Below, piece by piece: positions 23,824 to 56,101 of a stretch of DNA of 64,000 nucleotides. The DNA comes from Campylobacteraceae bacterium (GTDB lineage: Bacteria; Campylobacterota; Campylobacteria; Campylobacterales; Campylobacteraceae), in contig JAAYPR010000051.1 of NCBI GenBank assembly GCA_012519705.1, forward strand, positions 423 through 64,422. Direction: 5' to 3'. Position 1 is the stretch's first letter. Every line of letters starts with the position of its first letter. A program made the translations under genes and the position numbers. The notes below the pieces were generated by a model. The model saw nothing but the letters and a program-made list of their open reading frames with translations, was not told the origin of the DNA and ran no database searches.

Positions 23824-24131
23824 CGTCATTGCGAGCTTGCGTTAGCAAGCGTGGCAATCCATCAAAGACATTTTAAAGAATTTATAGAATTTCTACTTAA
23901 GAAAATTTTATAAAGAAATTCACAAAAGAAGAACCTTTAATTTAACTAAAAATTTTAACTTAAAAATTTAACAAAAAACACCTTAAATTTAATTGCAGTT
24001 TTATCCAAATGGATTTTACTTCGCTACGCTGCAGAAGCTTCAGCCTAAAGGACAACGCAGTGACGAGGTTAGTAGATATATTGTTGTAGGAAATTTAGGT
24101 CTAGATTACTTCACTGGCGTTTGTAATAACG
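23824..24131. repeat. CGTC-tagged REP-like palindrome cluster 1 (three copies)
   Basis: 23824-23860 (+) CGTCATTGCGAGCTTGCGTTAGCAAGCGTGGCAATCC; degenerate minus-strand copies at 24011-24065 and 24103-24131. Confidence 0.8.
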
Positions 24132-24178
24132 AATGGAGAGTGACTACTTCGCCTGTTAGTAACCAATAGTTGAAAAGC

Positions 24179-25201
24179 TTACTGCTTTTCAACTTTATTA
24201 CTAAGAATAACTGCGATAAACTCTGTTTTAGGGTTTATCAGAAGTGCTATTTGGATGCTCATAGTCAGTGGCACTGCTAAAAATAGCCCCCCAATTCCTA
24301 AAATATACCCCCATAAAAGTAAGCTAAACAGAACCACTATAGTTGAAAGTCCAAGCTCTTCGCCTACAATGCGAGGTTCTAAAATAGTTCCTAGAATGGT
24401 ATTTGGGATTAAATAAACAACTATAACCCAAAATGTAGTCGCAAAATCCGCCACTATAAGAGATAAAATCACAGCTGGAATCGCCGCAACAAAAGAGCCA
24501 ATCGTTGGGATGTAGTTTAAAATAAACGCAACTATCCCCCAAAGAAGAGCGTAAGGAATTTCTAAATACCAAAGCCCAAGCCCTATAAATGAGCCAGTTA
24601 AAATTGAAACTATAGTTTTAACAAGAAGGTATTTTTTAAGATGTCCGATAAAGGTGTTCGTAAAAAGGGTAGCTTTTGGGTATGTTTTGTTTAGATATGC
24701 AACTTTATCTTTTAAAATAGCAGTTTCAAAAAGCATAAAAGCAACGAGTATTAGGATAAAAAACCACATTGACAAAACCCCACTTGTTGTTTTTACAAGT
24801 GAGCTTGTGGTAGCGATGATTTTGTTTGACTCTATACTAAACATAGATTGGTTTAAGATAATCATATCGCTAAACTCGCTATCTCCAAGCTTTGCTGTCC
24901 ATGTCTCAAGTAAAGCGTTAAATCTTTTGCTAAGGTCTGGAAGTTGTCCTAAAAAGTCAAACATGGTAGTCACAGTAACGTTTCCGATAAACCCTAAGAA
25001 AAATATAAAACAACCAATTACCAAAACAAAAGAGATAGCTTTTGGGATGGCAACTTTTTCAAGTGCTGTTAAGGCAGGAGAGATAACGATGGCTATAAAA
25101 GTAGCTAGTGCAAACGGGACTATTATGCTATTTGCTGCTTTTAGTCCTGCAAAAATTACAAAAATAGAGGCTATTAATATTAAAACACTTTGAATTCTCA
25201 A
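24179..25201 (-). CDS. AI-2E family transporter
   Basis: LNYIPTIGS, ILEPRIVG, LFLAVPLT motifs. Confidence 0.9.
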   Translation of the reverse strand: MRIQSVLILIASIFVIFAGLKAANSIIVPFALATFIAIVISPALTALEKVAIPKAISFVLVIGCFIFFLGFIGNVTVTTMFDFLGQLPDLSKRFNALLETWTAKLGDSEFSDMIILNQSMFSIESNKIIATTSSLVKTTSGVLSMWFFILILVAFMLFETAILKDKVAYLNKTYPKATLFTNTFIGHLKKYLLVKTIVSILTGSFIGLGLWYLEIPYALLWGIVAFILNYIPTIGSFVAAIPAVILSLIVADFATTFWVIVVYLIPNTILGTILEPRIVGEELGLSTIVVLFSLLLWGYILGIGGLFLAVPLTMSIQIALLINPKTEFIAVILSNKVEKQ

Positions 25202-25254
25202 CTCATATCCTTGATGTTAAAATTTTTTTATTTTATCTAAAAAAATTAAAATTA

Positions 25255-26763
25255 CTATAAAAGTGGGGAAATTAGCCTAAAAATAGAGTTTCTTACTTTA
25301 TAAAAAATACCTTGATTTTGATACTTTTCAAGGGTAAGCTTTCGGCAGTTTTCTAAGTCTTTGCTAAACTGCTCCTTAAACTCAGAAGCTATTCTTTTGT
25401 CATAAAAAACCGTGTTTATCTCGTAGTGGATATCAAAGCTTCTTGAGTCAAAGTTGCAAGTTCCGATGGTGCAAATTTCATCATCATAGCACATAGCTTT
25501 TGCGTGGAAAAACCCAGTTTCATAGCGGTAAACTTCGATTCCAGCGATTAAAAGTTCTTCTATAAAAGTATCTGCCACCCAGTAAGGGATGCGTTTATCA
25601 GGCACTCCTGTGGTCATGAGCTTTATTTTCACGCCTGAGAGTGCTGCGATTTTAAGTTGCTGTAAAATGCTCGTGTTTGGGATGAAGTAGGGTGACTGGA
25701 TGAGAATTTCTTTTTTAGCATTTGTTATAAATCTAGTATAGAGGTATTTTAAGGACGGATAAGCACTATCAGGACCACTTGAGCTAAGTTGCATAAGATA
25801 GCCATTTTCTAAAATTTTTCTATTTTTAATCAGCTCTTCAAAGATGTCAAAGTTAAACTTACCGCCACTATTTAGCCAGTCTGTAGCAAAAACTGTTAGA
25901 TAGTAGAGTGCCATATCGCCAACGATTCTAAAGTTTGTATCTCTCCAGCTTTTAAACCGCCTGCCACCTGTGATATACTCAAGTCCTAAGTTCATACCTC
26001 CACTGTGAAGAATCCTGCCATCTACGATAGTCATTTTACGGTGGTTTCTGTAGTTTAGTTTTAGAAGTGAAGTTTTGATATTTAAAAAGTAAAAAAACTC
26101 AACTCCAGCTTTCTCTAACTCTCTTTTATATCGTCTACTGATAGTAAAAAATGAGCCAACCCCGTCAAAAATGATTTTTATCTTGACTCCCTCTTTTGCT
26201 TTTTTGACTAAAGCGTCTTTTATCTTAACTCCAAGAGCGTCTGAACGCCAGATAAAATACTCCATAAAAATGGTCTCTTTTGCTTCCATAATGTCCTTTA
26301 AAAGAGCATCAAACGCACTTTTTCCGTCGCTATAAATTTCATAACTTTCATTTAAGCTAGGGAGAGTTTTTTCTGAGTTGTAGAGTAAGCTTACCACCTC
26401 TCTTGCATCAGGGCTTAAATTTGTCTTAGATAAAACTTCATCAACTCTTTGTTTAGAGTTGTTTTTTAGTCCGAAGTAGCTAGCGGTGTTGTGCTTGAGT
26501 AGGTTTGAGTTTAGGGTTTTAAAAACTGTGTTGTTTTTTGTGTTTTTAAGGTTGTTTAAAAATGTCCTTTGACGCCAGTTAATGCCTAAGAAAAGATAAG
26601 CTATTAGCCCAAAAACTGGGAAAATAGTTATAGTAAGTATCCACGAAGCCGTGCTTGTGGGGTTTTTCTTCGACAGCAAAACCGAGAGCAAAGCGATAGA
26701 CCAGATGAGAAGATAGATATGCTCAACTGAAACTATCCAGAGTAAAATGTTGTTTATATTCAT
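25255..26763 (-). CDS. cls: Cardiolipin synthase
   Basis: Two N-terminal TM helices and two HKD motifs (NHRKMTIVD, FHAKAMCYD). Confidence 0.9.
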   Translation of the reverse strand: MNINNILLWIVSVEHIYLLIWSIALLSVLLSKKNPTSTASWILTITIFPVFGLIAYLFLGINWRQRTFLNNLKNTKNNTVFKTLNSNLLKHNTASYFGLKNNSKQRVDEVLSKTNLSPDAREVVSLLYNSEKTLPSLNESYEIYSDGKSAFDALLKDIMEAKETIFMEYFIWRSDALGVKIKDALVKKAKEGVKIKIIFDGVGSFFTISRRYKRELEKAGVEFFYFLNIKTSLLKLNYRNHRKMTIVDGRILHSGGMNLGLEYITGGRRFKSWRDTNFRIVGDMALYYLTVFATDWLNSGGKFNFDIFEELIKNRKILENGYLMQLSSSGPDSAYPSLKYLYTRFITNAKKEILIQSPYFIPNTSILQQLKIAALSGVKIKLMTTGVPDKRIPYWVADTFIEELLIAGIEVYRYETGFFHAKAMCYDDEICTIGTCNFDSRSFDIHYEINTVFYDKRIASEFKEQFSKDLENCRKLTLEKYQNQGIFYKVRNSIFRLISPLL

Positions 26764-26822
26764 AGAATCCCCAAATTTAAAAGCGTAATTTAGATTTTAC
26801 TAAATTTGGGTAAATTTAAACT

Positions 26823-26846
26823 AAGAGAGTGAAATTTCACTCTCTT
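26823..26846. terminator. Hairpin downstream of the dehydrogenase gene
   Basis: AAGAGAGTGAA / TTCACTCTCTT. Confidence 0.5.
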
Positions 26847-26854
26847 TTAAGAAA

Positions 26855-28111
26855 TTATTTTACTTCGTATCTCTCGCCTGGTTCCATCTCGATGATTTTC
26901 CATGGAAGTCCGTGTTTGTTTAGCTCATCCATAAATGGTTTTGCATCAAACTCTTCCATATTAAACACACCTTTGCCGCTCCAAATTCCCTTAGCCACCA
27001 TCATAGAGCCAATCATCGCTGGAACGCCTGTTGTGTAGCTTACCGCTTGAGCTCCTGTTTCAGCGTAGCAAACTTCGTGGTCGCAAACGTTGTAGATATA
27101 AACTTGTTTTTCTTTTCCATCTTTTAGCCCACGAATCACACAACCGATATTTGTTTTACCTTTTGTTCTTGGCCCTAAAGATGCTGGGTCAGGAAGTAGG
27201 GTTTTTAAGAACTGGATTGGCACGATTTTCATCCCATCATGCTCAACTTCGTCGATTCTAAGCATACCTACGTTTTCAAGGCATCTCATATGAGTTAAAT
27301 AACTCTCGCCAAATGTCATAAAAAAGCGGATTTGCTTTAAGCCTTTGATGTTTTTGCTAAGGCTTTCTAGCTCTTCGTGATAGAGCAGATAGCTATCTTT
27401 TACGCCAACTTCAGGATAATCCCATTTAAACATTATCTCCATCGGTTTTGTCTCTATCCACTCGCCGTTGTCCCAGTCAGTTACACGCTCACTAGTTGAT
27501 TTTTCATTTCTTTTCCAGTAGCGACCATTTGCCGAAACTTCTCTTAGGTTGATTTCAGGGTTAAAATTTGTTGCAAACGGGTAACCGTGGTCACCGGCGT
27601 TACAGTCTAGGATGTCGATGTAGTGAATTTCATCGAATAGATACTGCTGTGCGTAAGCACAAAAAACATTCGTAACTCCTGGGTCAAAACCACTTCCTAA
27701 AAGTGCCATAGTGTTAGCTTTTTTAAAGTCGCCGTCTTTTTCCCACTGAAGTTTATACTCAAATTTAGCAGTGTCTGGGTGCTCGTAGTTTGCCGTGTCG
27801 ATGTAAGGAATTCCAGCTTTCACGCACGCATCCATAAGTGTTAAGTCTTGGTATGGAAGTGCCACGTTTAGTAGAAGTTCCGCTCCAGTTTTTTTGATGA
27901 GCTCTACAACAGCGTCTGTATCATCAGCGTCAATCGCCGCTGTGTCGATATCTACATTTAAGCGGTCTTTGATAAATTTCGCTATCGCGTCACATTTGCT
28001 TTTAGTTCTACTTGCAAGCGTGATTTTAGTAAATACGTCGCTATTCATAGCACATTTTACAGTTGCTACTTGACTAACCCCACCTGCACCGACGATTAAG
28101 ATATTTGCCAT
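26855..28111 (-). CDS. Saccharopine-dehydrogenase-family protein, probable carboxy(nor)spermidine dehydrogenase
   Basis: Start MANILIVGAGGV after AAGGA; YIDTANYE, GSGFDPGVTN, FATNFNPEINLRE; nspC present in the same window. Confidence 0.87.
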   Translation of the reverse strand: MANILIVGAGGVSQVATVKCAMNSDVFTKITLASRTKSKCDAIAKFIKDRLNVDIDTAAIDADDTDAVVELIKKTGAELLLNVALPYQDLTLMDACVKAGIPYIDTANYEHPDTAKFEYKLQWEKDGDFKKANTMALLGSGFDPGVTNVFCAYAQQYLFDEIHYIDILDCNAGDHGYPFATNFNPEINLREVSANGRYWKRNEKSTSERVTDWDNGEWIETKPMEIMFKWDYPEVGVKDSYLLYHEELESLSKNIKGLKQIRFFMTFGESYLTHMRCLENVGMLRIDEVEHDGMKIVPIQFLKTLLPDPASLGPRTKGKTNIGCVIRGLKDGKEKQVYIYNVCDHEVCYAETGAQAVSYTTGVPAMIGSMMVAKGIWSGKGVFNMEEFDAKPFMDELNKHGLPWKIIEMEPGERYEVK

Positions 28112-28361
28112 TTTAATCCTTTGTATTGAAATTTCAAGATATTTTAGCAAATTTAGGAAACAAAACAAAGTTTTTAATTTGCTTTGAGTAAAAATAGGAA
28201 ATTTTAACCATGATAAGAAGAAATTTTACCCTAACACTATACAAACTCTCAAATTTTCATAATATTTTACTTTTTTATATATAATATATTGGCTTATAAC
28301 AAAGTTGCTAAAATCTTAGCTTAAAATATATTTAGCAGAAAGTTTTTGAAAGGAAATACAG

Positions 28362-29336
28362 ATGGAGAGAAGAAAATTTTTAAAATTTACCACACTCGGA
28401 CTAGCCTCATCATCTAGCGTTGTCTTTGCTAGTGAAAGTACCGCAAGCTCTATAAGCTCATCGCATGACTTTGGTATGGCAAGTATAATCGACCTTGATT
28501 TGTGTGATGGTTGCGTGGCTTACGATACGCCAAAGTGCGTCGCGGCTTGTAAAGATAAAAACAAGGACAAATTCCCACAACCAAAAGAGCCGATGATGGA
28601 TTACTGGCCACAAAAAAGCCACGAGGACTACTCAAAGCACAAGGACGAAACAAAACGCCTAAGCCCATATAACTACACTTTTGTTGAGAGCGTGAAAGTT
28701 GATGGCAAGGATGTTTTTGTCCCACGTCGCTGTATGCACTGTGATCACCCGCCGTGTCAGAAAATTTGCCCATTTGGTGTGATTTCAAAGAGCGAAGAGG
28801 GTGGGGTGGTGATTGATGATTATTTCTGTTTTGGTGGTGCAAAGTGTAGAAGTGCCTGTCCGTGGGGGATTCCACAACGTCAAGCTGGAGTTGGGGTCTA
28901 TCTTAAAGTCGCACCAAAACTAGCAGGTGGTGGCGTGATGTATAAGTGTGATATGTGTGTGGATCTGCTTAAAAAGGGCGAAAAACCAAGCTGTGAGGTA
29001 AGCTGTCCTAAGGGAGCAATTAAGTTTGATACTCGTGAAAATATCATGAAGCTAGTGGAGAATGAAACCCGCCACATCTACGGCAAGGACGAAAATGCGG
29101 GAACTAGGACGATTTATGTGAGTAGCGTGAGTTTTGAGGATATTGACAAAGCGATTGATGAAAAATACGCGGGTGGCTCAAGAATGGGGCTTCCGCATAT
29201 AAAAAGAGTTGATAATCCTATGGAAAAATCAGAGAATTTAGCACTTGCAAGTTTGATAGCACCTGTGGCTGGAATTTCAGCTGGGATAATCGCTGCTATA
29301 AAGAGCAAAAAAGGAGATAAAAATGAAGATAACTAG
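28362..29336 (+). CDS. Tat-exported multi-[4Fe-4S] ferredoxin (NrfC/HybA/DmsB-like)
   Basis: RRKFLK Tat motif; CDGC..., CMHCDHPPC...CP, CFGGAKC...CP, CDMC...C...CP; C-terminal TM helix. Confidence 0.85.
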   Translation: MERRKFLKFTTLGLASSSSVVFASESTASSISSSHDFGMASIIDLDLCDGCVAYDTPKCVAACKDKNKDKFPQPKEPMMDYWPQKSHEDYSKHKDETKRLSPYNYTFVESVKVDGKDVFVPRRCMHCDHPPCQKICPFGVISKSEEGGVVIDDYFCFGGAKCRSACPWGIPQRQAGVGVYLKVAPKLAGGGVMYKCDMCVDLLKKGEKPSCEVSCPKGAIKFDTRENIMKLVENETRHIYGKDENAGTRTIYVSSVSFEDIDKAIDEKYAGGSRMGLPHIKRVDNPMEKSENLALASLIAPVAGISAGIIAAIKSKKGDKNEDN

Positions 29337-30015
29337 GCAAACTTTACAAAATAGAATCGTGCATTGGGGGATAGCGATTAGCACCTTTGCGCTCATCATC
29401 ACGGGGATTTTTCAGATGCCAGTTGCGGGGCGGTATAATATAAATAAAGTTCCATTTTTAGAGTGGAGTGGGGACTACTATGTGAGCCTAAATTTACACT
29501 ATATTTTTGCGTTTTTGCTCATATTTTTCTTGTTTTTTCACATTGTAAATCACGCTATAAAGGGCGAGTTTGACATAGTTCCAAGAAAGGGCGATGTTAA
29601 AAACAGCTATCTTGTGATAAAAGCGATGATATTTAAAACTCCAGAGCCACCAAGCGATAAATATTTGCCTGAACAACGCCTTGCTTATCTTGCGTTTGCG
29701 TTTGCTTTTTTGCTTATCGTTGTAACTGGGATGATAAAAAGCTATAAAAATTTGCTCGGTTTTGATATCTCAAACAGGGCGTATTACTGGGCGGCAACTT
29801 TGCACAATCTTGGAATGGTGCTTATAATCTTGCTCATCATCGCTCACCTTGCTGCCTTCATCCCAAAAGAAAATAGGGCATTACTAAGTGCTATGTTTAG
29901 CGGAAAAGTTGGTGCAAAATACACACTTCACAGACACTCGCTTTGGAAAGAGGGTGTTAAAAAATCACAAAAAGCATTAGAAAAAGAGGAAATTAATAGC
30001 AAAAAAGAAATTTAG
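29323..30015 (+). CDS. Membrane cytochrome b subunit (FdhC/PhsC/YdhU-like)
   Basis: RIVHW, LHYI, LHNL, AHL heme-ligand His pattern; YLPEQRLAY. Confidence 0.82.
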   Translation: MKITRQTLQNRIVHWGIAISTFALIITGIFQMPVAGRYNINKVPFLEWSGDYYVSLNLHYIFAFLLIFFLFFHIVNHAIKGEFDIVPRKGDVKNSYLVIKAMIFKTPEPPSDKYLPEQRLAYLAFAFAFLLIVVTGMIKSYKNLLGFDISNRAYYWAATLHNLGMVLIILLIIAHLAAFIPKENRALLSAMFSGKVGAKYTLHRHSLWKEGVKKSQKALEKEEINSKKEI

Positions 30016-30143
30016 AAAATGTGTTAAAACCTAGGAACCAAGGCACTGTAGAACAGTAGATTTTATTTACAATGATTTACATAATTTATTCTTACAGTGC
30101 CAAATTTAGCTTTAAAATCGCTGGTATTTTAGCGAATTTAGAG

Positions 30144-32088: not shown

Positions 32089-32098
32089 GTGATATAGC

Positions 32099-32413
32099 CG
32101 CCATTGCGAGGAGCGAAGTGACGAAGCAAGCCAATGAATAAAAGCTTAATAAATTTATAAGTTTTATGCTTGGAAAAATTTTGTATATGATTTTACAAAA
32201 ACTAACCATTAAATTTGGTTTAAAATTCAATTTAATGGATTGCCACGGCAACAAGTTGCCTCGCAATGACGGGTGGAGAGTGTTTTTTGTAATTTTGGTT
32301 TTAGAATTTTCTTTAAAATAATCACTAGATTGCCACGATTTTACTTCGTAAAATCTCGCAATGACGGATAGAGAGTGGATTGTCACGCTTGCTAACGCAA
32401 GCTCGCAATAACG
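32099..32413. repeat. CGTC-tagged REP-like palindrome cluster 2 (four copies)
   Basis: + copy 32099-32132; minus copies 32237-32271, 32327-32366, 32377-32413 (last is 35/37 identical to 23824-23860). Confidence 0.88.
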
Positions 32414-32487
32414 GGTAGAGAGTGGTTTTAGTGAATTAATTTTTCTAAATTTTTGTGATAACGAAGTAAAATAATGATAAATGTATC

Positions 32488-35318: not shown

Positions 35319-37172
35319 TCACTTGCTTAAAGCTTTTTCTACGCTAAATGGGAAAGCTTGGTATCCGCTACTTCCTGACATATGGATTTTAAGTTCAAAT
35401 GATGGCTCTGTTGCATTCCATTCAAACTCACTTAGAGTTGGTGTTGGAGCACCAATTCTTGTGCCTGTCGCAAGGTCAAAGTCCATACCAGCTGTAGCTG
35501 AGTAAACAAGAACAGAGTCTTTGTCTTCATGATACTCTGTTAGTGAAGTAACAGGGCTATAGTAAGACTTGCCTCTTTGTTTTCCATATTCCCAAATTTG
35601 TTCAACCGTCATGTTTTTTTGATCAACTTTATAAATAACACCACGGCTATATTTCATATCTGGAAGTGCAGGTTGTTCAAACCCTCTACTGTCACCGTTG
35701 TCAAATACCGCTACAGTAACTACATCTTCATTTGTTTTGCTATCGATTACAAATGCTGTGTGCTGAGTATAAGTCCAGTCAAATCCACCTTCTGGGTTTA
35801 GATATCCAGGACATTTTGTATACTCATCTTCACATACGATTTTGTTACCTTCGCTATCAACTGGTTGAAGTAGGTATTGTTTAAACTCATCTTTCCAGCC
35901 TTTGTGAGCACCTAAAATCCACTTAACTTTTTTATCTCTACCGATTTTAATAACTGCGTTTTGGTGGCGAGATGAGATAACTATACTATCATCGCTTGGA
36001 TCGTGATCAACACTATTTACGTGAGCCCAGTTTCTACCAGCTCCACTTCCAACGATATCGCCAAATTTATCACTTGCATCAAGTGCTGCCAAGTCATCAT
36101 CACTTAGAGTTTGACCAGCTTGAGATGCGTCGATGTTTAGACAAACTGCACCTTGGTCAAGAACTTTTAGAACATTATCTCTATATGGATCTAAAATTTG
36201 GAAAAGTTTCCAGTCATCTACAACGTTCCCATCTTTATCTACTTCTATAATCACGTCTCTAACAGTTCTAACGTTTTTACCATCTGGGCGTTTTGTATTA
36301 GCTGAAGCTACGCGAAGTAGGTAGTTTCCGTTGTCCATATTGTCCATAGAGTGTGAGAAGTCAATATAGCCTTTTGGAAGAGGGCGGTTAAAAATCTCAC
36401 GTCCTAAGATGTCATATTTAGCATAGTTTTGTCCATATCCCCAAGTGATAGCCCCATCATCATTTTGCTTAAAGCCCATCATAACACCAGCATTAAACGC
36501 AGAGTGTAGGTTGTAAATAGGTGGATAGAACATATACCATCTAACTTCACCTTTTGTATCAAGGATATAGTTGTTTGGCTCAAAATTCCACTCTAGTGCA
36601 CCACCCATTGGGTTGTTCCAAACTAGCTCAACACCATTTGCACTTTTGCCACCTAAGTTGTTGATAAAGTAAAGTCTGTCTGCAAATTTTTCAGTTGGCT
36701 CTTTTGTGATTTCAATACTATCAAAAAATGCACTCTTTTGTCCTCTTAGTCCGCTTCCGTTAGACCAAACAGCAGGTGCGTAAATTTTATAATCTTCTTT
36801 GATTACTTCCTCTTGTCCTTTGTAAATTCTAGTATATTCAACCTCAACCGTGTTTTGATAGTCTGCATACATACCAAATACTGGAATTCCACCATGAGTT
36901 AAAAGATGCTTATTTGCAACTTTGTATTTGATTTCCTGACCACCTGGCTTTGGAACGATTCTAACAGTAACATCTTTGATATCATAGCCGCCATTTGAGA
37001 TTATCGCTGTAAGTGGTGCGATACCGTAAGGGTTTGCTTTAACTGCACCCAGTTTTCCTTGAAGAACATAGTCAGTTCTTGGACCGCTTGCTCCACCAAT
37101 TGCTAGAGCTTGTGTAGCACCTACAGTTAGTAACAAACCAGCAACAACTGCTGAACTTAAAATTTTTTTCAT
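35319..37172 (-). CDS. assT: Periplasmic aryl-sulfate sulfotransferase, copy 2
   Basis: Sec signal peptide; DFSHSMD, NWAHVNS, SSRHQ, TQHTAF catalytic motifs; Cys pair CEDEYTKC. Confidence 0.92.
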   Translation of the reverse strand: MKKILSSAVVAGLLLTVGATQALAIGGASGPRTDYVLQGKLGAVKANPYGIAPLTAIISNGGYDIKDVTVRIVPKPGGQEIKYKVANKHLLTHGGIPVFGMYADYQNTVEVEYTRIYKGQEEVIKEDYKIYAPAVWSNGSGLRGQKSAFFDSIEITKEPTEKFADRLYFINNLGGKSANGVELVWNNPMGGALEWNFEPNNYILDTKGEVRWYMFYPPIYNLHSAFNAGVMMGFKQNDDGAITWGYGQNYAKYDILGREIFNRPLPKGYIDFSHSMDNMDNGNYLLRVASANTKRPDGKNVRTVRDVIIEVDKDGNVVDDWKLFQILDPYRDNVLKVLDQGAVCLNIDASQAGQTLSDDDLAALDASDKFGDIVGSGAGRNWAHVNSVDHDPSDDSIVISSRHQNAVIKIGRDKKVKWILGAHKGWKDEFKQYLLQPVDSEGNKIVCEDEYTKCPGYLNPEGGFDWTYTQHTAFVIDSKTNEDVVTVAVFDNGDSRGFEQPALPDMKYSRGVIYKVDQKNMTVEQIWEYGKQRGKSYYSPVTSLTEYHEDKDSVLVYSATAGMDFDLATGTRIGAPTPTLSEFEWNATEPSFELKIHMSGSSGYQAFPFSVEKALSK

Positions 37173-37248
37173 TTTTTCTCCTTTTTGTAAGGTAAGAAAG
37201 CTAGCAAATTTAACATTTGCACCTAGGGTTTTGTTCGCCTATACTTGA

Positions 37249-37279
37249 ATTTTACTCCAAGTTCTCACAAAGTTCTAAT
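37249..37279 (-). promoter_or_regulatory. assT2 promoter: -10 TAAAAT plus tandem repeat box
   Basis: Plus strand GTTCTCAC-AAA-GTTCTAAT (37261-37279), 6 nt from ATTTTA (37249-37254). Confidence 0.65.
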
Positions 37280-37374
37280 AATTATATAAAAATATGCTTA
37301 AAATTTAAGATAAAAATTTAAATTACAAAGTTAAGATTTTAAAAAGTTAACTAAAAAAGAGATATATAGCATTA

Positions 37375-37392
37375 GGGGGCAAATTTGCCCCC
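37375..37392. terminator. GC-rich hairpin after assT1
   Basis: GGGGGCA-AATT-TGCCCCC. Confidence 0.55.
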
Positions 37393-37422
37393 CCTGCAAG
37401 GAAAAATACGTTACAAGCTTTA

Positions 37423-39249
37423 TTACTTACTTAAAGCTTTCTCGATACTAAATGGCCATGCTTGGTAACCCATAGCGTTGGTCATTACGATTTCAACAGC
37501 TGGCTCTGTTTCACCCCATCTAAACTCGTTGATGTGTGGGCTTGGAAGACCTGTTGGGTTTCCTGTAGCGATGTCAAACTGCATTCCAGCAACAGCTGAG
37601 TAAGCAAATACTGAGTTTTTGTCTGCTTGGTATTCTGTTAGAGATGTAACTGAGCTATACCAGTCAAATCCTCTTTCTTTTCCATACTCCCAAACTTGTT
37701 CAACTGTCATATTCTTTTGGTCGATTTTGTAAACAACCGCTCTTGAATACTTCATAGTTGGAAGTGCTGGTTGAGTCATACCTCTACTATCACCGTTGTC
37801 AAAAGCACTTACATAGATGATATCGCCTTTGCTTAACTCATCGATTTTAAATGCTGTATGTTGTGTCCATGTAAAGTCGAAGTCTGAGTTTTCACAAACA
37901 CCTTTTTCGTTACAATTGATTTTGTTTCCTTGGGCGTCAATTGGTTGTAAAAGTTTGCTTTGGAACTCTTCTTTCCAGCCTTCACTTGCACCAAGTATCC
38001 AAGTAACTTCTTTGTTTCTACCGATTTTAATGATAGCGTTTTGGTGTCTTGAGCTTAGGATGATACTATCATCTTCTGCGTCGTGATCAACACTGTTTAC
38101 GTGTGCCCAGTTTCTTCCTGGTCCAGAACCCACGATATCGCCAAACTGATCATTTGTATCCATAGCTGCTAACTCATCTTCACTTAGAGTTTGTCCACCC
38201 ATTGAAGCGTCGATGTTTAGACATACCGCACCTTGGTCAAGAACTTTTAGAGCTACGTCTCTATATGGATCTAGCATCTCATATAGTCTCCAGTCATCAA
38301 CAACATTACCATCTTTATCAACTTCAACGATAACGTCTCTTACTGTTCTAACGTTTTTACCGTCATTTCTCTTTAGGTTTGCGTTTGCAACTCTTAGGAA
38401 GTAGTTACCGTTTGGACTATCATCCATTGAGTGTGAGTAGTCAACGTAACCTGCTGGTAACTCTCTGTTGAAAATCTCTCTACCCATGATGTCGTATTTA
38501 ACATATCTTTGTCCATATCCCCAAGTGATAGCACCGTCATCATTTTGCTTAAAGCCCATCATAACACCAGCGTGGAATGCCGAGTCAAGCTTATAGATAG
38601 TTGTAGCATCTAAGAACCATCTAATCTCACCTGTTGTATCCACGATGAAGATTTGTGGGTCATAGTTCCACTCTAACGCACCACCCATTGGGTTGTTCCA
38701 TACAACTTTTGTACCTTTTCCAGTTTTGTTTTGGAAGTTGTTTACAAAGTAAAGTCTGTCTTTGAAGTCATCATCAACTTTTACAACTTCGATTTTGTCA
38801 AAGAACACGCCTTTTTGTGAAGCGTGACCTGATGTTGGTCCATAAACTGGTGGTGCATAAAGAGTATAAGTTTCGTTAACTTTTTCTTCAACACCTTTGT
38901 ATGTTTTTGTATAGCTAACTTCTACTTTGTTTACATAGTCAGGATATAAGCCAAATACTGGAATACCACCATGTGTGCCAAGTTCGCCGTTTGCAACATC
39001 GTATTTAATCTCTTGGCCACCTTCTTTTGGCACGATTCTAACAGTCGCGTCTTTTATGCTATATCCACCATTTTTGATAACAGCTGTTAATGGAGCTATA
39101 TCATATGGGTTCATAACAACTTCACCGATTACACCTTGAACAGCGTAGTCAGTTCTTGGACCACTTGCTCCACCAATCGCTAGAGCTGAAGTAGCACCTA
39201 CAGTTAGCAACAAACCAGCAACAACTGCTGAACTTAAAATCTTCTTCAT
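37423..39249 (-). CDS. assT: Periplasmic aryl-sulfate sulfotransferase, copy 1
   Basis: Same catalytic motifs (DYSHSMD, NWAHVNS, SSRHQ, TQHTAF); Cys pair CNEKGVC. Confidence 0.92.
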   Translation of the reverse strand: MKKILSSAVVAGLLLTVGATSALAIGGASGPRTDYAVQGVIGEVVMNPYDIAPLTAVIKNGGYSIKDATVRIVPKEGGQEIKYDVANGELGTHGGIPVFGLYPDYVNKVEVSYTKTYKGVEEKVNETYTLYAPPVYGPTSGHASQKGVFFDKIEVVKVDDDFKDRLYFVNNFQNKTGKGTKVVWNNPMGGALEWNYDPQIFIVDTTGEIRWFLDATTIYKLDSAFHAGVMMGFKQNDDGAITWGYGQRYVKYDIMGREIFNRELPAGYVDYSHSMDDSPNGNYFLRVANANLKRNDGKNVRTVRDVIVEVDKDGNVVDDWRLYEMLDPYRDVALKVLDQGAVCLNIDASMGGQTLSEDELAAMDTNDQFGDIVGSGPGRNWAHVNSVDHDAEDDSIILSSRHQNAIIKIGRNKEVTWILGASEGWKEEFQSKLLQPIDAQGNKINCNEKGVCENSDFDFTWTQHTAFKIDELSKGDIIYVSAFDNGDSRGMTQPALPTMKYSRAVVYKIDQKNMTVEQVWEYGKERGFDWYSSVTSLTEYQADKNSVFAYSAVAGMQFDIATGNPTGLPSPHINEFRWGETEPAVEIVMTNAMGYQAWPFSIEKALSK

Positions 39250-43151: not shown

Positions 43152-43346
43152 CATCATTCTAAGAAAGCGAAAGGGCGTAGCAATTCACACTACCAGTCGT
43201 TGCGAGATTTGAAGCGAAGCGGAAAATCGGGGCAATCTAGTTTTTGAAATTCTGGAGTGAATTTTAAGAAATTTGGTTTTCAAATTTCTCACAACAACAT
43301 ATCTACCGACATCGTCATTGCGAGGAGCGAAGCGACGAAGTAATCC
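43152..43346 (+). repeat. CGTC-tagged REP-like palindrome cluster 3 (three copies)
   Basis: Degenerate copy about 43152-43186; 43196-43237; 43313-43346 CGTCATTGCGAGGAGCGAAGCGACGAAGTAATCC (30/34 identical to 32099-32132). Confidence 0.82.
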
Positions 43347-43460
43347 ATTTGAATAAATTTTTAGTTAAATTTAATGGTTTTTGTTTATTAAATCCAGAGA
43401 TAAAATTTTTAAAAATACAAAATTTACTAAATTTATTAAAGTTAATTTTACTGTTTTTTT

Positions 43461-43582
43461 AAGGGGGCAGGGGCTTCAGAGTTGCGAGGGTCAGCCCCCG
43501 CCCCCTTAACAACCCCCACCCCTGACCGACGCACAAAGTTGCTGTGCTTCGCACAGGTTTTTATGTTTTTGCTACGCAAAAA
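43461..43582. other. GC-rich structured element: 15-bp hairpin, G4-capable tract and two GNA-triloop mini-hairpins
   Basis: AAGGGGGCAGGGGCT / AGCCCCCGCCCCCTT (14/15); C5-G-C5-TTAACAA-C5-A-C4 at 43495-43522; CTGTGC-TTC-GCACAG; TTTTTGC-TAC-GCAAAAA. Confidence 0.7.
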
Positions 43583-47778: not shown

Positions 47779-47779
47779 T

Positions 47780-48457: not shown

Positions 48458-48459
48458 GC

Positions 48460-49915: not shown

Positions 49916-51027
49916 GTGAGTTTAAAACCATCATTTTAGGTGGTGGTGCAAGTGGGCTGTTTTTAGCTGCTAATTTAAAAGACGCGACTATCCTAGAGCA
50001 AAACAGCTCCCTTGGTAAAAAAATCATCGCAAGTGGCGGTGGAAAATGCAATATCACAAACGCTAGAATCTCTACTGACAACTATCTTGGGGATTCTAAA
50101 TTCGTCTTTGAAATTTTATCAAATTTAAACTACAAAGAAGTTTTAGAGTTTTTTAGCCCCCTTAAATTTCATAAAATAAAAAATCACCAATATTTTTGCA
50201 AAACAAACTCAAAAGATGTGTTAAATCACCTAGCTAGAAAAGTAAAAAATGCCTATCTAAACACCGAAGTTTTAGACGTTTCAAAGTCTGGCGATAAATT
50301 TGAAATCATAACTTCAAAAGGCAAATTTAAAGCTGAGAACTTAGTCGTGGCAACTGGCGGGCTAAGTTGCCCAAGTTTAGGCGTTAGTGATATAGGGTAT
50401 AAAATCGGAGCTAAATTTGGTCACGAAGTTACCACTCTAAACCCAGCTTTAACGGGTTTTACAGTTCAAAAAGAGGAGTTTTGGTTTAAGGAGTTAAGCG
50501 GAGTTAGCCTAAATGCTAGCCTAAAAGCTGGGGAGAGAAGCTTAGATGGCGACCTACTTTTTACTCATAAAGGAATTAGCGGGCCGCTTATATTTAACGC
50601 AAGTTTGTTTTGGGAAAAAGGAAGGATGAGTCTAAACTTTTTACCAAACTTTAATCTTGAAAAAATAAAACAGTCTAAAAAACAACTTGCCTCCGAACTT
50701 TCACTTCCAAAAAGCTTCATAAAAGCGTTTCTAAACTCACAAAATTTAGAAGATAAGCAGATTTATAAATTTAGTAAAGATGAGTTTGAAATTATAAAAA
50801 AACTACAAAACTACGACTTCGCACCAGCTGGAAATTTTGGTTACTCAAGAGCTGAGATAACAAAAGGCGGTGTAAAAACTGAGTTTATAGATAGCAACTG
50901 CATGAGCACTATGCAGCCAAATTTATACTTCATCGGCGAAGTGCTAGATGTAAGTGGAATGCTTGGCGGGTATAATATCCACTTTGCATTTGCAAGTGCA
51001 AAAGCTGCTTTAAAAAACTTAATTTAA
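49912..51027 (+). CDS. HI0933/BaiN-family flavoprotein
   Basis: GGGASG, SGGGKCNITN, TGGLSCP, LFTHKGISGP, GEVLDV.G.LGGYN. Confidence 0.9.
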   Translation: MSEFKTIILGGGASGLFLAANLKDATILEQNSSLGKKIIASGGGKCNITNARISTDNYLGDSKFVFEILSNLNYKEVLEFFSPLKFHKIKNHQYFCKTNSKDVLNHLARKVKNAYLNTEVLDVSKSGDKFEIITSKGKFKAENLVVATGGLSCPSLGVSDIGYKIGAKFGHEVTTLNPALTGFTVQKEEFWFKELSGVSLNASLKAGERSLDGDLLFTHKGISGPLIFNASLFWEKGRMSLNFLPNFNLEKIKQSKKQLASELSLPKSFIKAFLNSQNLEDKQIYKFSKDEFEIIKKLQNYDFAPAGNFGYSRAEITKGGVKTEFIDSNCMSTMQPNLYFIGEVLDVSGMLGGYNIHFAFASAKAALKNLI

Positions 51028-51190
51028 CAAACTAACTCTCTTCATTTTCACTATAAAAGAAACTGTTTTTTTAACAATAAATCACCTTAAAATCCCAGCA
51101 AATTTTATCTTTTAGAATTTAAATAAAATTTATCAATAAGTAGTAAAATATCAAAAAATTAAATCTATTTCTATGATATTGGAGAGAGCT

Positions 51191-52006
51191 ATGAACATTT
51201 TATTTACTTTGGATTCTAACTATATTCACCCCTTTAAAGTTGCGATGAAATCGATGTTTTTAAACAATGCTGGTGAGAGCTTAACTATTTATCTGATGCA
51301 CTCTTCCATAAAAGATGATGAGTTAGCAGACATTGAGGCTTTTGTTCGCCATCATGGACAGGAGTTTGTTTCCATTAAAGTTAGTGATGAGAGCTTTAGT
51401 AACGCCGCCACAACTATGCACTACACAAAAGAGATGTATTACCGTTTGATTTGCCATGAGTTTTTGCCAAATGATATGGAAAAAATTCTCTATATCGACC
51501 CGGATACTTTGATAATAAATAGCCTTAAAAGTCTGTATGAGATAGATATTGATGGTTATCTTTTTGTTGGGGCGTATCACGAAACTATGCCAACTAAGGT
51601 GTTAAATCAGATTAGATTTCATGAGTATGATTTGACAAATTACTACAACTCAGGAGTGTTGCTTATAAATTTAAACCTAGCAAGACAGAGAATAAACTCA
51701 GCTGAAATTTTTAAATTTGTAGAGGAAAATGGGGGTAAACTTATACTTCCAGATCAAGACGTGCTAAACGCTCTTTTTTCAAACGATATTAAGAGCATAG
51801 ATGAGAAGCTTTATAATTATGACGCTAGATATTTTCATCTTTACCGCTTGAAATTTGACAACGAATGGACGATGAGAGAGGTTATAAAAAGAACTGTGAT
51901 ACTACATTTCTGCGGTGCGAAAAAGCCGTGGAGAGATGACTATAGGGGAAGCTTTAGCTCCTTGTATGCTCACTATGAAAATTTGATGAATAGTACGAAA
52001 TATTAG
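51191..52006 (+). CDS. Glycosyltransferase family 8
   Basis: Start MNILFTLDSNY after GGAGAG; YYRL, LYIDPD (DxD), YNSGVLLINL, DQDVLN, HFCGAKKPW. Confidence 0.9.
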   Translation: MNILFTLDSNYIHPFKVAMKSMFLNNAGESLTIYLMHSSIKDDELADIEAFVRHHGQEFVSIKVSDESFSNAATTMHYTKEMYYRLICHEFLPNDMEKILYIDPDTLIINSLKSLYEIDIDGYLFVGAYHETMPTKVLNQIRFHEYDLTNYYNSGVLLINLNLARQRINSAEIFKFVEENGGKLILPDQDVLNALFSNDIKSIDEKLYNYDARYFHLYRLKFDNEWTMREVIKRTVILHFCGAKKPWRDDYRGSFSSLYAHYENLMNSTKY

Positions 52007-52049
52007 TTGCTAAATAAAAAGTGAAAAAATTATTTTTAAAAAATATCTG

Positions 52050-52111
52050 TATAAATCGCTTCGAACAGCAATCGTGAGGGCTGTTTTCTTGCTGTGAGAA
52101 GCGAGTTTATA
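52050..52111. terminator. Long hairpin between convergent GT8 and CPBP genes
   Basis: TATAAA.TCGCTTC...ACAGCAA / TTGCTGT...GAAGCGA.TTTATA. Confidence 0.45.
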
Positions 52112-52138
52112 AGCCTTTTTAGATAAGAAATATCAAAA

Positions 52139-52747
52139 CTATCCATTATAAAAATACCTACCAAGCCCTATTGTAAATATAAAATTTCCATATAGGGCGT
52201 GTTCTATCGTGGAAAGCACCACTGAGCCACTTTTAAGGTAGGTTTTCATAAACATTAGCCCACCAAAAAAGCTAAAAATCACAGCGATAAAATTTCCATA
52301 TAGCAAGTGAACAGCACCGAAAATCAGAGCGTTTATCAGCACAAAACTAAGCTCATTTTTAAAAAGAAATTTATAACGCAGGGTAAAAAAAGCACGAAAC
52401 AAAATCTCTTGAAAAAATGCTGAAAACAAGGGGTATAAAATCATCACCAAAACCCAAATTTTAAAGTGGGTTTTTGGAAGCATAAATAAAGTTTCACGCG
52501 AAAAAACAAGAGTAAAAAGAGTTAGCAAAACAGCAAAAAAGATAAACCTTTTAACTATAAATTTAAGCCCATCTAGATTAAATTTAACAAACAGCTTGTA
52601 TTTAACTCTAGCTAGATGAAAAAGGGCATAAATTGCACCGCCCCAAAGTAAGATAAACATATAGTTATCCGGAATTACTTTAAATGCCAAAAGTAATGGG
52701 GCGATGATAAAAATCAGAGCTAACTCAAAAACTCTTAAAAACTTCAC
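52139..52747 (-). CDS. CPBP/CAAX-type intramembrane protease family protein
   Basis: QEILFRA, FGAVH, HALYGN. Confidence 0.85.
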   Translation of the reverse strand: MKFLRVFELALIFIIAPLLLAFKVIPDNYMFILLWGGAIYALFHLARVKYKLFVKFNLDGLKFIVKRFIFFAVLLTLFTLVFSRETLFMLPKTHFKIWVLVMILYPLFSAFFQEILFRAFFTLRYKFLFKNELSFVLINALIFGAVHLLYGNFIAVIFSFFGGLMFMKTYLKSGSVVLSTIEHALYGNFIFTIGLGRYFYNG

Positions 52748-52754
52748 TTAAAAT

Positions 52755-53948
52755 TTACACCATCTTTAAAATTTCTACAACATCGCCTTTTTTATACCCA
52801 TCAAGTTCAAGAGGAACTACCAAAAGCCCAGCTTGGTTGTTAAGGTTATTGACTATCGCACTTGAGCCTTCTTTTTTGCCTTGCAAATTTACCTTTAAAA
52901 CCCCGTTTTCATCAACTCTTACGTTACACGCGGCAAACTCTAAAAACGGCGACTTTTTATCATAGTCTTCATCTAAAACTGCTTTGAAGCTATACTCATC
53001 CGTGATATTAAAAAAGCTTTTTAGTAGCACTCTTACGTATAAAACGCACATCACCATAGCAGAGTATGGAAACCCAGGAAGAGCGAAGATATATTTCTCA
53101 TCCGCTTTTGCCACTCTTATATGGCGACCTGGTTTGATGGCGGCTCTGTTGATGATGATTTCTAAGTTTTTGCTTAACGCGTCTTTTACGAAGTCATAAT
53201 CCCCTACGCTTACACCACCTGTTGTTAGTAAAATGTCACAAAATTTCAAAGCGTTTAAGATAGAGCTTTCCACAACTTCAGGCTTATCTTTAGCAATCGG
53301 CAGGATTATCGGCTCGCATCCCATAAGTTCCACCATCGCTGCAAGTGCGACGTGGTTCGAACTTCTAATTTGAGCGGCGTTTTCTAGCGGTTCGCCAAGG
53401 TCTTTTATCTCGCTTCCAGTTGCTAAAATCGCCACCTTTGGCTTTACAAAAACGCTTACATGAAACTCGCCAAGCTCGGCTAAAAGAGCGATTTCAGAGT
53501 AGCTGATTTTAGTGCCTTTTTTTAGCAAAATCTCGCCTTTTTTATAGCTCTCGCCAACCGCTCTTATAGCGTGACCCTTTTTGACTGGTTTTGTGATTTT
53601 TATCTTGTCACCCACGACTTCCACGTTTTCTATCGGCACTAAAGTATCGCTATTTTGAGCCATAAGTGAGCCTGTAAAGGTTTTGATACACTCATCATCT
53701 TTTAGCTTGATTTCATTCAAAGTCCCAGCAGGTGTGTCGCCTAGAATTTTATACTCATCTTTGCCAAATTTCACAGCATACCCATCCATCGACGATGTTT
53801 CAAACTCAGGGTAGTTTTCTTTTGCCACGATGTCCTCGGCAAGGTAGCGATTTAGAGCATTTGTCAGAGTTACTTTTTCTACTCTATCCCACTTGATAGT
53901 GTGTTTTTTTAGAATTTCCAAAGTTTCAGCGTAAGGCATAAATTTCAT
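52755..53948 (-). CDS. moeA: Molybdopterin molybdotransferase
   Basis: SSMDGYAV, TGGVSVGDYD, IKPG, LPGFP. Confidence 0.94.
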   Translation of the reverse strand: MKFMPYAETLEILKKHTIKWDRVEKVTLTNALNRYLAEDIVAKENYPEFETSSMDGYAVKFGKDEYKILGDTPAGTLNEIKLKDDECIKTFTGSLMAQNSDTLVPIENVEVVGDKIKITKPVKKGHAIRAVGESYKKGEILLKKGTKISYSEIALLAELGEFHVSVFVKPKVAILATGSEIKDLGEPLENAAQIRSSNHVALAAMVELMGCEPIILPIAKDKPEVVESSILNALKFCDILLTTGGVSVGDYDFVKDALSKNLEIIINRAAIKPGRHIRVAKADEKYIFALPGFPYSAMVMCVLYVRVLLKSFFNITDEYSFKAVLDEDYDKKSPFLEFAACNVRVDENGVLKVNLQGKKEGSSAIVNNLNNQAGLLVVPLELDGYKKGDVVEILKMV

Positions 53949-54427
53949 TTATCATCCTTTAAAAGCCCAGCACCCTCTATAAGAGCCGACCTTTCCTTAG
54001 CGTAAATTCTCTTACCATCTTTTAAGTCATATTTCCAAATCGGAGCATTTGCCTTAAAGTCCTCAACATACTCATTTATAAGCCTAAGTGCCACTTTTCT
54101 TTGCTTTGAGACAACTGCGGCTAGATAGGAGCTCTCGCCCACAAACACATCGCCAACCGAGTGAGCCATCAAAACCTTTGCACCCTCCGCCCCAGCCCTT
54201 TTTACCCACTCATCAAACCACGCTTTTAACATCGGTTCGTGGATGTCAAAACTAAGCCCAGTAACGCTGTCATCATCTCTAATAATGCCTGAAAAAACTA
54301 TAAAAGCACCAAGGTTTTTATCTTTTATCTCATCGTGCCATCTTGCGTAAATTTCAGCTGTATTTAGTCCGCCTTTGTGAATTTCCATTTTAGAAATTTC
54401 GCATTTTGTGTTACAAGTTCCCATCAT
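53945..54427 (-). CDS. moaE: Molybdopterin synthase catalytic subunit (start 54427 or 54388)
   Basis: GAFIVFSGIIR, HSVG, KANAPIWK; TAATG coupling to moaD. Confidence 0.9.
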   Translation of the reverse strand: MMGTCNTKCEISKMEIHKGGLNTAEIYARWHDEIKDKNLGAFIVFSGIIRDDDSVTGLSFDIHEPMLKAWFDEWVKRAGAEGAKVLMAHSVGDVFVGESSYLAAVVSKQRKVALRLINEYVEDFKANAPIWKYDLKDGKRIYAKERSALIEGAGLLKDDK

Positions 54428-54648
54428 TAACCCCCACAAACCGGCGGTAGAAGCGAGACTCTATCTCCACTTTTTAAAGCCACGTTTAAATCGCTAATTA
54501 TCGTGTCATTTAGTGCAACAGCACAAATTTCAAGCCACTCTTTAAGGCTTTCATCTTGATTTAGCAGCTCTTTTATCTCTTGTAAATTTGACGCCCTAAC
54601 TTCTAAATCAGGCTTTCCAATAGGTCCTAAAAACTCTATCTTTACCAT
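54427..54648 (-). CDS. moaD: Molybdopterin synthase sulfur carrier
   Basis: Ubiquitin-like, C-terminal PPVCGG. Confidence 0.93.
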   Translation of the reverse strand: MVKIEFLGPIGKPDLEVRASNLQEIKELLNQDESLKEWLEICAVALNDTIISDLNVALKSGDRVSLLPPVCGG

Positions 54649-54737
54649 AAATTTCCTTTTTTAAATAAATTTCAAAATATTGTAACAAAAGTTGCTAAAC
54701 TTATATATAATGTTAAAAATTTATTAAAAGGATAGAA

Positions 54738-55868
54738 ATGAGTGAGATAAAAACCCCAGCTTATGTTTGCGAACTTCCAAAGCTTTTGGCAAATTTGAGT
54801 ATTTTAAAAGAAGTAGGCGAGAGAAGTGGTGCGAAGGTGCTTTGTGCATTAAAGGGCTTTGCTTTTAGCCTTGGGATGCCCTATGTTGATAGATACCTTG
54901 ATGGTGCGACTTGTAGCGGTTTGCACGAGGCTAAATTTGCAAAAGAGTTTATAAAAAATGGCGAAATTCACACCTACTCACCAGCTTTTAAAGACGAGGA
55001 TTTTGATGAGGTTTTGGAAATTTCACACCATGTTGTTTTTAATAGCTTCAACCAATGGGAAAAATTTAGAGAAAAAGCTCTTAAAAAAGGCGTAGAGTGT
55101 GGGCTTAGAGTAAATCCGGAAAGCTCATTTTCCCCAGTTGATGCGTATAATCCATGCGGTAGATATAGCAGGCTTGGTATAACAAAAGCAAACTTTAGAT
55201 CAGATTTGATTGATGGGATTTCAGGACTTCATTTTCACGCACTTTGTGAAGAGAGTAGCGAGAGTTTGGCTAAGGTTTTAGAGAAATTTGAGGCACATTT
55301 TGGCGAGTTTATCCCAAAGATGAAATGGGTAAATTTCGGCGGTGGACACCACATCACAAGAAAAGGCTACAATATAGAGCTTTTGATAAAGTTAATCAAA
55401 AACTTTAGAGAAAAATACGGCGTAGAAGTTTATTTGGAACCTGGCGAGGCAGTTGGCTGGGAGACTGGGCACTTAGAAACAACGGTTCTTGACATCGTGG
55501 AAAATGAGAAAAAAATTGCCATTTTAGACACTTCAGCAGAGGCTCATATGCCAGATACCGTTCTTATGCCTTACCGCCCAGCTGTGAGAGGTGAGAGTGA
55601 AAATGGGGCATATAGCTACAGACTTGGTGGAAATACCTGCTTAGCAGGAGACATTATAGGGCTTGAAAGCGGAGACGCGGAGTATAAATTTGACAAGCCT
55701 TTAAAAGTGGGCGATAGAGTGATATTTGAAGATCAAATTCACTACACTATAGTTAAAAACACTACCTTTAACGGGGTAAAACTACCTGATTTAGTTTTAG
55801 TTGATGAAAATGAAAAAGTGATAAATAAAATAGAACTTGGATACGAAGAGTATAGAAGAAGAAACTAA
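54738..55868 (+). CDS. nspC: Carboxynorspermidine/carboxyspermidine decarboxylase
   Basis: LCALKGF, GLHFHALCE, NFGGGHH, HMPD, TTFNG. Confidence 0.93.
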   Translation: MSEIKTPAYVCELPKLLANLSILKEVGERSGAKVLCALKGFAFSLGMPYVDRYLDGATCSGLHEAKFAKEFIKNGEIHTYSPAFKDEDFDEVLEISHHVVFNSFNQWEKFREKALKKGVECGLRVNPESSFSPVDAYNPCGRYSRLGITKANFRSDLIDGISGLHFHALCEESSESLAKVLEKFEAHFGEFIPKMKWVNFGGGHHITRKGYNIELLIKLIKNFREKYGVEVYLEPGEAVGWETGHLETTVLDIVENEKKIAILDTSAEAHMPDTVLMPYRPAVRGESENGAYSYRLGGNTCLAGDIIGLESGDAEYKFDKPLKVGDRVIFEDQIHYTIVKNTTFNGVKLPDLVLVDENEKVINKIELGYEEYRRRN

Positions 55869-55901
55869 ATTTATAAAGCGTGTAGTAGGTATATGATATG
55901 C

Positions 55902-56101
55902 CGCTATTGTGAGCAACGAAGCGATGAGGTAACTACTTTCTAAGTGTCATTGCGAGACGGACGAAGTCCGGCGTGGCAATCTAGTTCTAAAAATTTAAAA
56001 GTTAATTTTAGTAAAATTTAGTTTTTAAAAGTTTGGTTCTTAATCAAATTTTAGTTTAATATCTAGATTGCCACGAAGTCTTACGACTTCTCGCAATGAC
56101 G
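55902..56101. repeat. CGTC-tagged REP-like palindrome cluster 4 (three copies)
   Basis: Degenerate + copy about 55902-55933; + copy 55945-55982; minus copy 56065-56101 (CGTCATTGCGAGAAGTCGTAAGACTTCGTGGCAATCT). Confidence 0.86.

Follow-up and report, generated by a model that had tools for sequence, protein, structure and literature searches.

Tagged hairpins in the window

The stretch of DNA analysed here, referred to as the window, covers 64,000 nucleotides (C31:423-64422) of the 1.72-Mb metagenome-assembled genome of a Campylobacterota bacterium from biogas fermenters (52 contigs, 34.8% G+C, 99% complete). Its intergenic regions contain a family of short, oriented hairpins with a 5′ CGTC tag, probably a subtype of the SRM repeats recognised by Ssn nucleases. 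The original prediction, made from the letters of this DNA, placed about 13 copies in four intergenic clusters; the four clusters are confirmed, the count is revised to 12, and the five inner stems it quoted are all present where it had placed them. A covariance model of the hairpin consensus matches eight of these copies at E<=0.03, the other four being degenerate or variant, and CGTCATTGCGA occurs nine times in the window at one mismatch or fewer against 0.35 expected. A match at 4934 on the minus strand was discarded as a chance hit, since it lies inside an open reading frame (ORF) and lacks a 3′ arm.

The unit follows the scheme H-GTC-ATTGC-GA-[R stem-loop Y]-G(W)(R)-GCAAT-C-YRG and forms a two-tier hairpin, in which a constant 5-bp outer stem (ATTGC/GCAAT) and a GA/GWR internal loop enclose a free inner stem. 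Almost every copy has CGTCAT or TGTCAT ahead of its stem, a tag kept across phyla, and in the seed alignment both G3-T4-C5 and GCAAT-C are invariant, the latter followed by TAG, CAG or CAT. About ten classes of inner part can be distinguished in this genome, including class A with a Watson-Crick inner stem, frequently ending in a C-GNA-G triloop, and class B (GGAGCGAAGCGAC) with a GCGAAGC mini-hairpin between tandem G.A; short inner forms exist beside these two. GNA triloops (GAA, GCA, GTA) are the commonest loops. Folded as DNA, seven of eight class A copies gave z = -1.9 to -3.7 and the copy with a long inner stem at 43194-43239 gave z=+0.1, while the class B fold lies outside the reach of nearest-neighbour rules. 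The G.A mismatches, GNA loops and strand asymmetry make up a single-strand signature.

The first cluster comprises a class A hairpin at 23823..23861 on the plus strand (CGTC-ATTGC-GA-[GCTTGC GTTA GCAAGC]-GTG-GCAAT-CCA; 48.4 bits, DNA fold z=-3.3) and a variant or degenerate copy at 24011..24066 on the minus strand, read from the sequence as CGTCACTGCG...GCCTTTAGGCTGAAGC fused to a CTGCAGCGTAGCGAAGTAAAATCC tail, which is the far end of an asymmetric composite element beginning at 23823. The CTGCAGCGTAGCGAAGTAAAATCC-type tail motif is also found in seven other copies. Elsewhere in the genome, seven copies (contigs C3, C26, C27, C29, C33 and C42) carry an extra block of ~37 nt (GTCTGCAGCGAAGCGTCTCGGCAGTTACGAGCGTAGC) between GTGGC/GAAGC and a second GAAGTAAAATCC arm; a related tail lies at window positions 24011-24040, and the block looks like a second module spliced into the 3′ arm.

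The second cluster opens with a class B copy at 32098..32135 (+; GAGGAGCGAAGTGACGAAGCAA) whose arms are mutated (CGCCATT.., ..GCAAGCC) and for which nearest-neighbour rules predict no fold. This copy forms an inverted doublet, with a spacer of 108 nt, with the class A hairpin at 32236..32272 (-; inner GGCAA CTTG TTGCC, 45 bits), and two further class A hairpins on the minus strand follow at 32326..32367 (inner GATTTTAC GAA GTAAAATC; 53.8 bits, z=-3.5) and 32376..32414 (inner GCTTGC GTTA GCAAGC, arms CGTT.. and ..GTGACAAT; 32.5 bits). All three copies of the third cluster lie on the plus strand: a degenerate class-B-like copy read from the sequence at 43152..43187 (TCATTCTAAGAAAGCGAAAGGGCGTAGCAATTC), the hairpin at 43194..43239, whose long inner stem includes a GCGAAGC mini-hairpin (GATTT GAAGCGAAGCG GAAAATC; 29.7 bits), and a class B copy at 43312..43347 (CGTCATTGCGAGGAGCGAAGCGACGAAGTAATCC; 18.4 bits), the inner sequence of which is itself kept across phyla. 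The same intergenic region holds a G-rich palindromic stretch at 43465-43500 (GGGGGCAGGGGCTTCAGAGTTGCGAGGGTCAGCCCCC), unrelated in sequence to the hairpin family. In the fourth cluster, a degenerate class B copy, again read from the sequence, at 55901..55935 (+; CCGCTATTGTGAGCAACGAAGCGATGAGGTAAC) precedes two hairpins found by the covariance model, at 55944-55983 (+; inner ACGGAC GAA GTCCGG) and 56064-56102 (-; inner GAAGTC GTAA GACTTC), which together form an inverted doublet (55944..56102) around an AT-rich spacer of 80 nt by model-match coordinates or 86 nt from arm to arm.

Genome-wide abundance and covariation

A two-arm pattern searched across the whole genome returned 217 matches, compared with 14 in a reversed-genome control, corresponding to approximately 200 copies, and CGTCATTGCGAG occurs 123 times against 0.07 expected. 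Both helices covary, within the genome and across more than 15 phyla. In an alignment of 118 distinct copies (the window plus 80 loci of other phyla), which was model-fitted and therefore favours pairing, 97.8% of cells are paired, all seven inner pairs have changed on both sides, and compensatory cells number 214 versus 62.7 in shuffles, with none of 500 shuffles reaching 214. A test anchored on the arms, in which the inner segment is unselected, found at least four nested pairs in 53% of 133 distinct segments versus 1.9% of shuffles. The outer stem changes likewise, with one pair being G-C in 145 cases, A-T in 11, G-T in five and A-C in five (p=3e-10), i.e. G-C passes jointly to A-T. The free covariation of the inner stem that had been proposed from the window is borne out within this genome and across phyla.

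Genomic placement

All but ten of the 217 matches are intergenic (207), the remainder being chance matches or spurious ORFs over clusters. The repeats lie at gene 3′ ends, frequently as inverted doublets; convergent spacers hold 76 copies against 36 expected by length and divergent spacers six against 39. The first hairpin past a gene is more often sense than antisense (126 vs 75, p=4e-4), and a weak replication-strand bias (90 vs 63, p=0.035) is confounded with gene orientation. Neighbouring copies form a (+,-) pair in 57 cases, their spacers peaking at about 70, 110 and 155 nt, and the doublets are embedded in larger lineage-specific composite elements in which inner-stem class is independent of flank type. 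Five genes are bracketed by repeats in the host genome, all of them ordinary, and the only multi-copy genes are paralogues of the major outer membrane protein (MOMP), an IS1595-type transposase and ordinary duplicates. Three MOMP-like paralogous genes or fragments sit amid large repeat clusters of five and six hairpins (C17:1-2794 and C50:2046-2825); we take them to be MOMP-like from their resemblance, judged by eye, to the C. jejuni PorA sequence, and this Campylobacter-type protein is one ground for assigning the host to Campylobacterota. Further large clusters are found next to genes for a pilin-like protein, an adhesin-like protein and a 1912-aa secreted protein.

At two window clusters, four or five congeners lack the repeats at the corresponding orthologous sites; in the case of the block 55944..56102, four congeners lack it as a whole in the orthologous intergenic region. 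Empty sites, which were to be sought in relatives, are thus present in congeners; other assemblies carrying the same gene are 100% identical and consequently yielded no filled/empty pair; the repeat-rich congeners G152 and G305 are too diverged for orthologous sites to be aligned. Directly past the doublet of the fourth cluster, at 56104-56130, there is a perfect palindrome (AGCGTAAATTTACGCT) and then AAAATTTT; AGCG also occurs before the block, at 55876-55879, and congeners have a terminator-like hairpin at this position. In this single case the block may have entered a terminator, duplicating 4 nt in the process.

Distribution across bacteria

The same arms, enclosing unrelated inner stems, were found in at least 120 stretches of DNA from Oscillospiraceae, Patescibacteria, Chloroflexota, Bacteroidota, Planctomycetota, Rickettsiales, Neisseriaceae and others. 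The suggestion that comparable repeats with a CGTC tag are found in bacteria such as Rickettsia holds, as loci of Rickettsia, Tisiphia and Finniella have the same arms and the paper describing the SRM class names Rickettsia and Wolbachia (PMC11893778). Within Campylobacterales the distribution is patchy, with copies in 37 of 301 genomes, the richest of which hold 148, 130, 123, 50, 47, 39 and 36. The arms are common to many phyla whatever the neighbouring genes, whereas the flanks are lineage-specific. Clustering of 782 flanking ORFs from 120 cross-phylum loci revealed no recurrent neighbour gene, only housekeeping families (ABC transporters, Fur, GroEL, NUDIX).

Relationship to the Ssn/SRM system

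A system with much the same features was recently described, in which the Neisseria repeat NTS (CGTCATTCCCGCGMAVGCGGGAATCYRG) represents a wider class of such motifs termed SRM (Chenal et al., Nat Commun 2025, PMC11893778). The NTS/SRM family includes the Neisseria dRS3 repeat ATTCCC-N8-GGGAAT, and the cognate enzyme SsnA is a 94-aa single-domain GIY-YIG protein (cd10448; PMC11893778). Ssn binds the hairpin and cuts only single-stranded DNA, only on the sense strand and a few nucleotides upstream of the motif; it does not act on double-stranded DNA, RNA or the opposite strand, and RNA is not bound (PMC11893778). Binding depends critically on the C that follows the palindrome, and cutting on the three bases that precede it (PMC11893778). 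In N. meningitidis the system trims incoming transforming DNA and lowers the integration of NTS-bearing DNA, and NTS clusters flank surface-protein genes in Neisseria (PMC11893778). SRMs are present in 71% of ssn regions, and of the genomes that hold more than 200 SRMs, 81% have ssn (PMC11893778).

The repeats described here have the form CGTCATTGC-GA-[stem]-GWR-GCAATC-TAG/CAG/CAT and resemble NTS in their oriented CGTC(AT) tag, their ATT...AAT palindrome and the C and YRG that follow. As in SRMs, an HGTCWY tag directly precedes a hairpin-forming inverted repeat of 20-50 nt, and the best conserved positions, the GTC that leads into the palindrome and the C that follows, are those found critical in the published work. 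Hundreds of clustered intergenic copies, features typical of single-stranded DNA hairpins and, in a congener and other phyla, the arrangement of repeat, small GIY-YIG gene, repeat are further points in common. Some clusters also lie beside surface-protein genes (the porin-like MOMP paralogues and the adhesin-like gene), as they do in Neisseria. The repeats differ in that NTS is one continuous 8-bp palindrome whereas here a two-tier hairpin has a freely varying inner stem, in that the host belongs to Campylobacterota, a group unmentioned in PMC11893778, and in that the ssn gene is missing from the host genome and most of its repeat-rich relatives.

The link to the nuclease comes from other genomes. 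In the complete congener G152, two single-domain GIY-YIG genes (93-110 aa), whose open frames extend over 97 and 110 aa, are each enclosed by these hairpins (loci L142 and L143). A 93-aa query from the first of them has PF01541 as its sole Pfam match (E=1.3e-17, residues 2-75), shows weak similarity to the UPF0213 structure 1zg2 (E=2e-4) and shares 58% identity with copies from a Rickettsia endosymbiont. Among arm-bearing genomes of many phyla, 41 of 50 encode a homologue (E<=1e-5) and 31 of 50 a close homologue (E<=1e-16), the latter compared with 11 of 301 Campylobacterales (Fisher p=3e-22). Of the 30 homologue loci retrieved from these genomes, 11 have hairpins no more than 150 nt from the gene on each flank, mostly pointing inwards as hairpin(+), gene, hairpin(-). 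The GIY-YIG genes flanked by repeats that the original prediction proposed to look for exist in the congener and across phyla, but not in the host genome, and this proposed check was what led to the identification of the family.

Given the shared tag, ATT...AAT ends, C and YRG tail together with the cross-phylum link to the homologue, we file the window hairpins as a two-tier subtype of SRM, of the same kind as Neisseria NTS/dRS3, an assignment that we consider likely. By analogy with the published enzyme, the repeat strand would fold whenever the DNA becomes single-stranded, and Ssn would bind the hairpin and cut the same strand a few nucleotides upstream. The earlier idea of structure-selected, non-autonomous hairpins read by a nuclease as single-stranded DNA or RNA accordingly holds in kind for a nuclease and single-stranded DNA, and is not supported for RNA, which Ssn did not bind (PMC11893778). 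This assignment would place a Campylobacterota genome and an unlisted cross-phylum repeat subtype inside the recently described system; moreover, the constant arms with free inner stems provide a natural substrate series that suggests where Ssn makes its contacts, a help to the applications in cutting single-stranded DNA proposed for these enzymes.

Other ssn homologues in Campylobacterales (L146-L154) each have their own arm variant of the CGTCAT-tagged hairpin on their flanks, with different, co-varied arms (ATTCCTGC/GCAGGAAT, ATTTC/GAAAT, ATTGCGGG/CCCGCAAT) that resemble Neisseria dRS3. That each homologue is accompanied by its own variant suggests, from these sequences, that nuclease and repeat co-evolve. 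The ATTGCGAG subtype is often scarce or missing in the genomes that hold these genes.

Several results weigh against placing the hairpins in the Ssn/SRM system. The published SRM search string, HGTCWYN(0-2)YYVSBRHN(0-5)WNVSBRGN(0-2)RNCYNB, matches none of the 217 copies; it requires YY after the tag where the repeats have TG, and in the host genome it gives five unrelated matches versus one in the control. The string also misses a canonical-looking hairpin of another subtype beside an ssn gene (L147), and we therefore regard it as narrow, a search tool rather than a definition, which under-counts the SRM family. No ssn homologue was detected in the 99%-complete assembly by six-frame PF01541 search, tblastn to E=10 or protein search, contrary to the expectation of a nuclease encoded elsewhere in this genome; PF01541 matched the assembly only once, in an open frame of 625 aa, which is as long as the UvrC gene that all relatives possess. 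Likewise, ssn was not found in 10 of 12 repeat-rich Campylobacterales, including the complete genome G305, and its presence in two of 12 contrasts with the 81% reported for genomes with more than 200 SRMs. Loss of the gene during assembly is not favoured, as repeats are not enriched at contig ends (6 of 104 vs 5.3 expected).

Orphan repeats and alternative explanations

The copies in this genome look like orphans, yet are conserved: the arms are diverged by ~4%, whereas the spacers of the same doublets lie 25% from their consensus and 36% apart pairwise. Gene loss, an unbinned replicon, gene conversion and an Ssn-independent role are candidate causes of this state. The favoured scenario is that the copies are orphan substrates, amplified while an Ssn was present that was later lost or that resides on an unbinned replicon, and that today they would mainly make host DNA cleavable in Ssn-bearing recipients or serve an Ssn-independent function. 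Multiplication may have proceeded by recombination at the conserved arms, as the free reshuffling of inner stems with flanks suggests. Genomes that are rich in repeats but lack the nuclease bear on how SRMs multiply and why they persist. Unless the pattern is an artefact of gene loss or unbinned replicons, it is also conceivable, if rather unlikely, that the subtype has expanded and stays constrained in Ssn-less lineages independently of any resident Ssn, either because a second factor reads the arms or because the repeats act as population-level marks deciding whose DNA survives uptake by Ssn-bearing neighbours.

A related alternative is that the repeats are maintained, and perhaps spread, in this lineage by something other than Ssn, such as a second protein reading the arms or a host function of the folded DNA, with ssn as an occasional passenger. 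The rarity of ssn among repeat-rich Campylobacterales and the contrast between arms and doublet spacers speak for this explanation, but the host genome has no candidate gene between repeats, the genes flanked on two sides being ordinary, and the arm conservation could equally reflect gene conversion, recent loss of ssn or ascertainment. Together with the strong cross-phylum link of the repeats to ssn, this makes the alternative unlikely.

The position of the copies at gene 3′ ends, their avoidance of promoter-side (divergent) spacers and the mostly sense orientation of the first hairpin after a gene could indicate elements acting as RNA, either 3′ untranslated hairpins that stabilise or terminate transcripts or a small-RNA family. 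More than a third of the copies are antisense to the nearest gene, however, there is no U tract, the same arms occur across phyla irrespective of neighbouring genes, and the cognate protein family acts on single-stranded DNA, not on RNA (PMC11893778). Nor do the hairpins correspond to a known non-coding RNA, a condition already attached to the original prediction, as Rfam 15 gave no match at gathering score in the window, with only chance-level matches at E<=10 in the second cluster. We consider a function at the RNA level very unlikely.

Composite units of 150-300 bp with inverted ends, and two IS1595-family genes in the genome, would fit miniature inverted-repeat transposable elements (MITEs), i.e. 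internally deleted derivatives of a DDE insertion sequence (e.g. of IS1595 type) moved by cut-and-paste. This origin is highly improbable: no target-site duplication could be recognised, a doublet generally combines hairpins with unlike inner stems, inner class does not depend on the type of flank, conservation is confined to a folded motif that lies subterminally and is common to phyla while the flanks are lineage-specific, and the repeats bracket GIY-YIG genes, not DDE genes. Copies of an IS1595/ISXO2-type DDE transposase gene (PF12762, E=4e-26) lie at C52:29363-30043 and C20:21642-22100, one of them truncated, and one copy is ~300 nt from a hairpin.

Repetitive extragenic palindromic (REP) elements, including BIME and REPIN arrangements, that are mobilised by RAYT, a Y1 HUH transposase of the IS200/IS605 type reading the folded hairpin, have in common with these repeats short hairpins with an oriented 5′ tag, extragenic inverted doublets with discrete spacers (~70, 110 and 155 nt) and a cognate enzyme gene flanked by repeats, but the enzyme here is a GIY-YIG hydrolytic nuclease, the genes between repeats being GIY-YIG and not Y1, the tag is CGTC rather than GTAG, and the Y1 transposase (PF01797) for which a search had been proposed was found neither in the host genome nor in its copy-rich relatives G152, G305 (both complete), G276, G061 and G264, so that this explanation is rejected as having almost no chance of being correct.

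Two further families invite comparison with the SRM-like hairpins. Integron attC sites are similar in having conserved outer boxes, an unpaired internal region, a variable terminal stem and one folded strand that is read; they differ in that the repeats here have no R/L boxes (GTTRRRY), no integrase or cassette organisation nearby and positions downstream of ordinary genes. Rickettsia palindromic elements (RPEs) are likewise small, abundant palindromic repeats of some host-associated bacteria, and the arms described here occur in Rickettsia and Tisiphia. RPEs are 100-150 bp long and are frequently inserted in frame inside genes, whereas every true copy here is intergenic, a comparison made against RPEs by description only. 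Readings as K-turn, loop E, hammerhead, attC or DNA uptake sequence were dropped, as their defining motifs are absent from the sequence.

Among other features of the window, positions 35319-39249 hold two tandem paralogous arylsulfotransferase genes encoding proteins of 617 and 608 aa (PF05935/PF17425).

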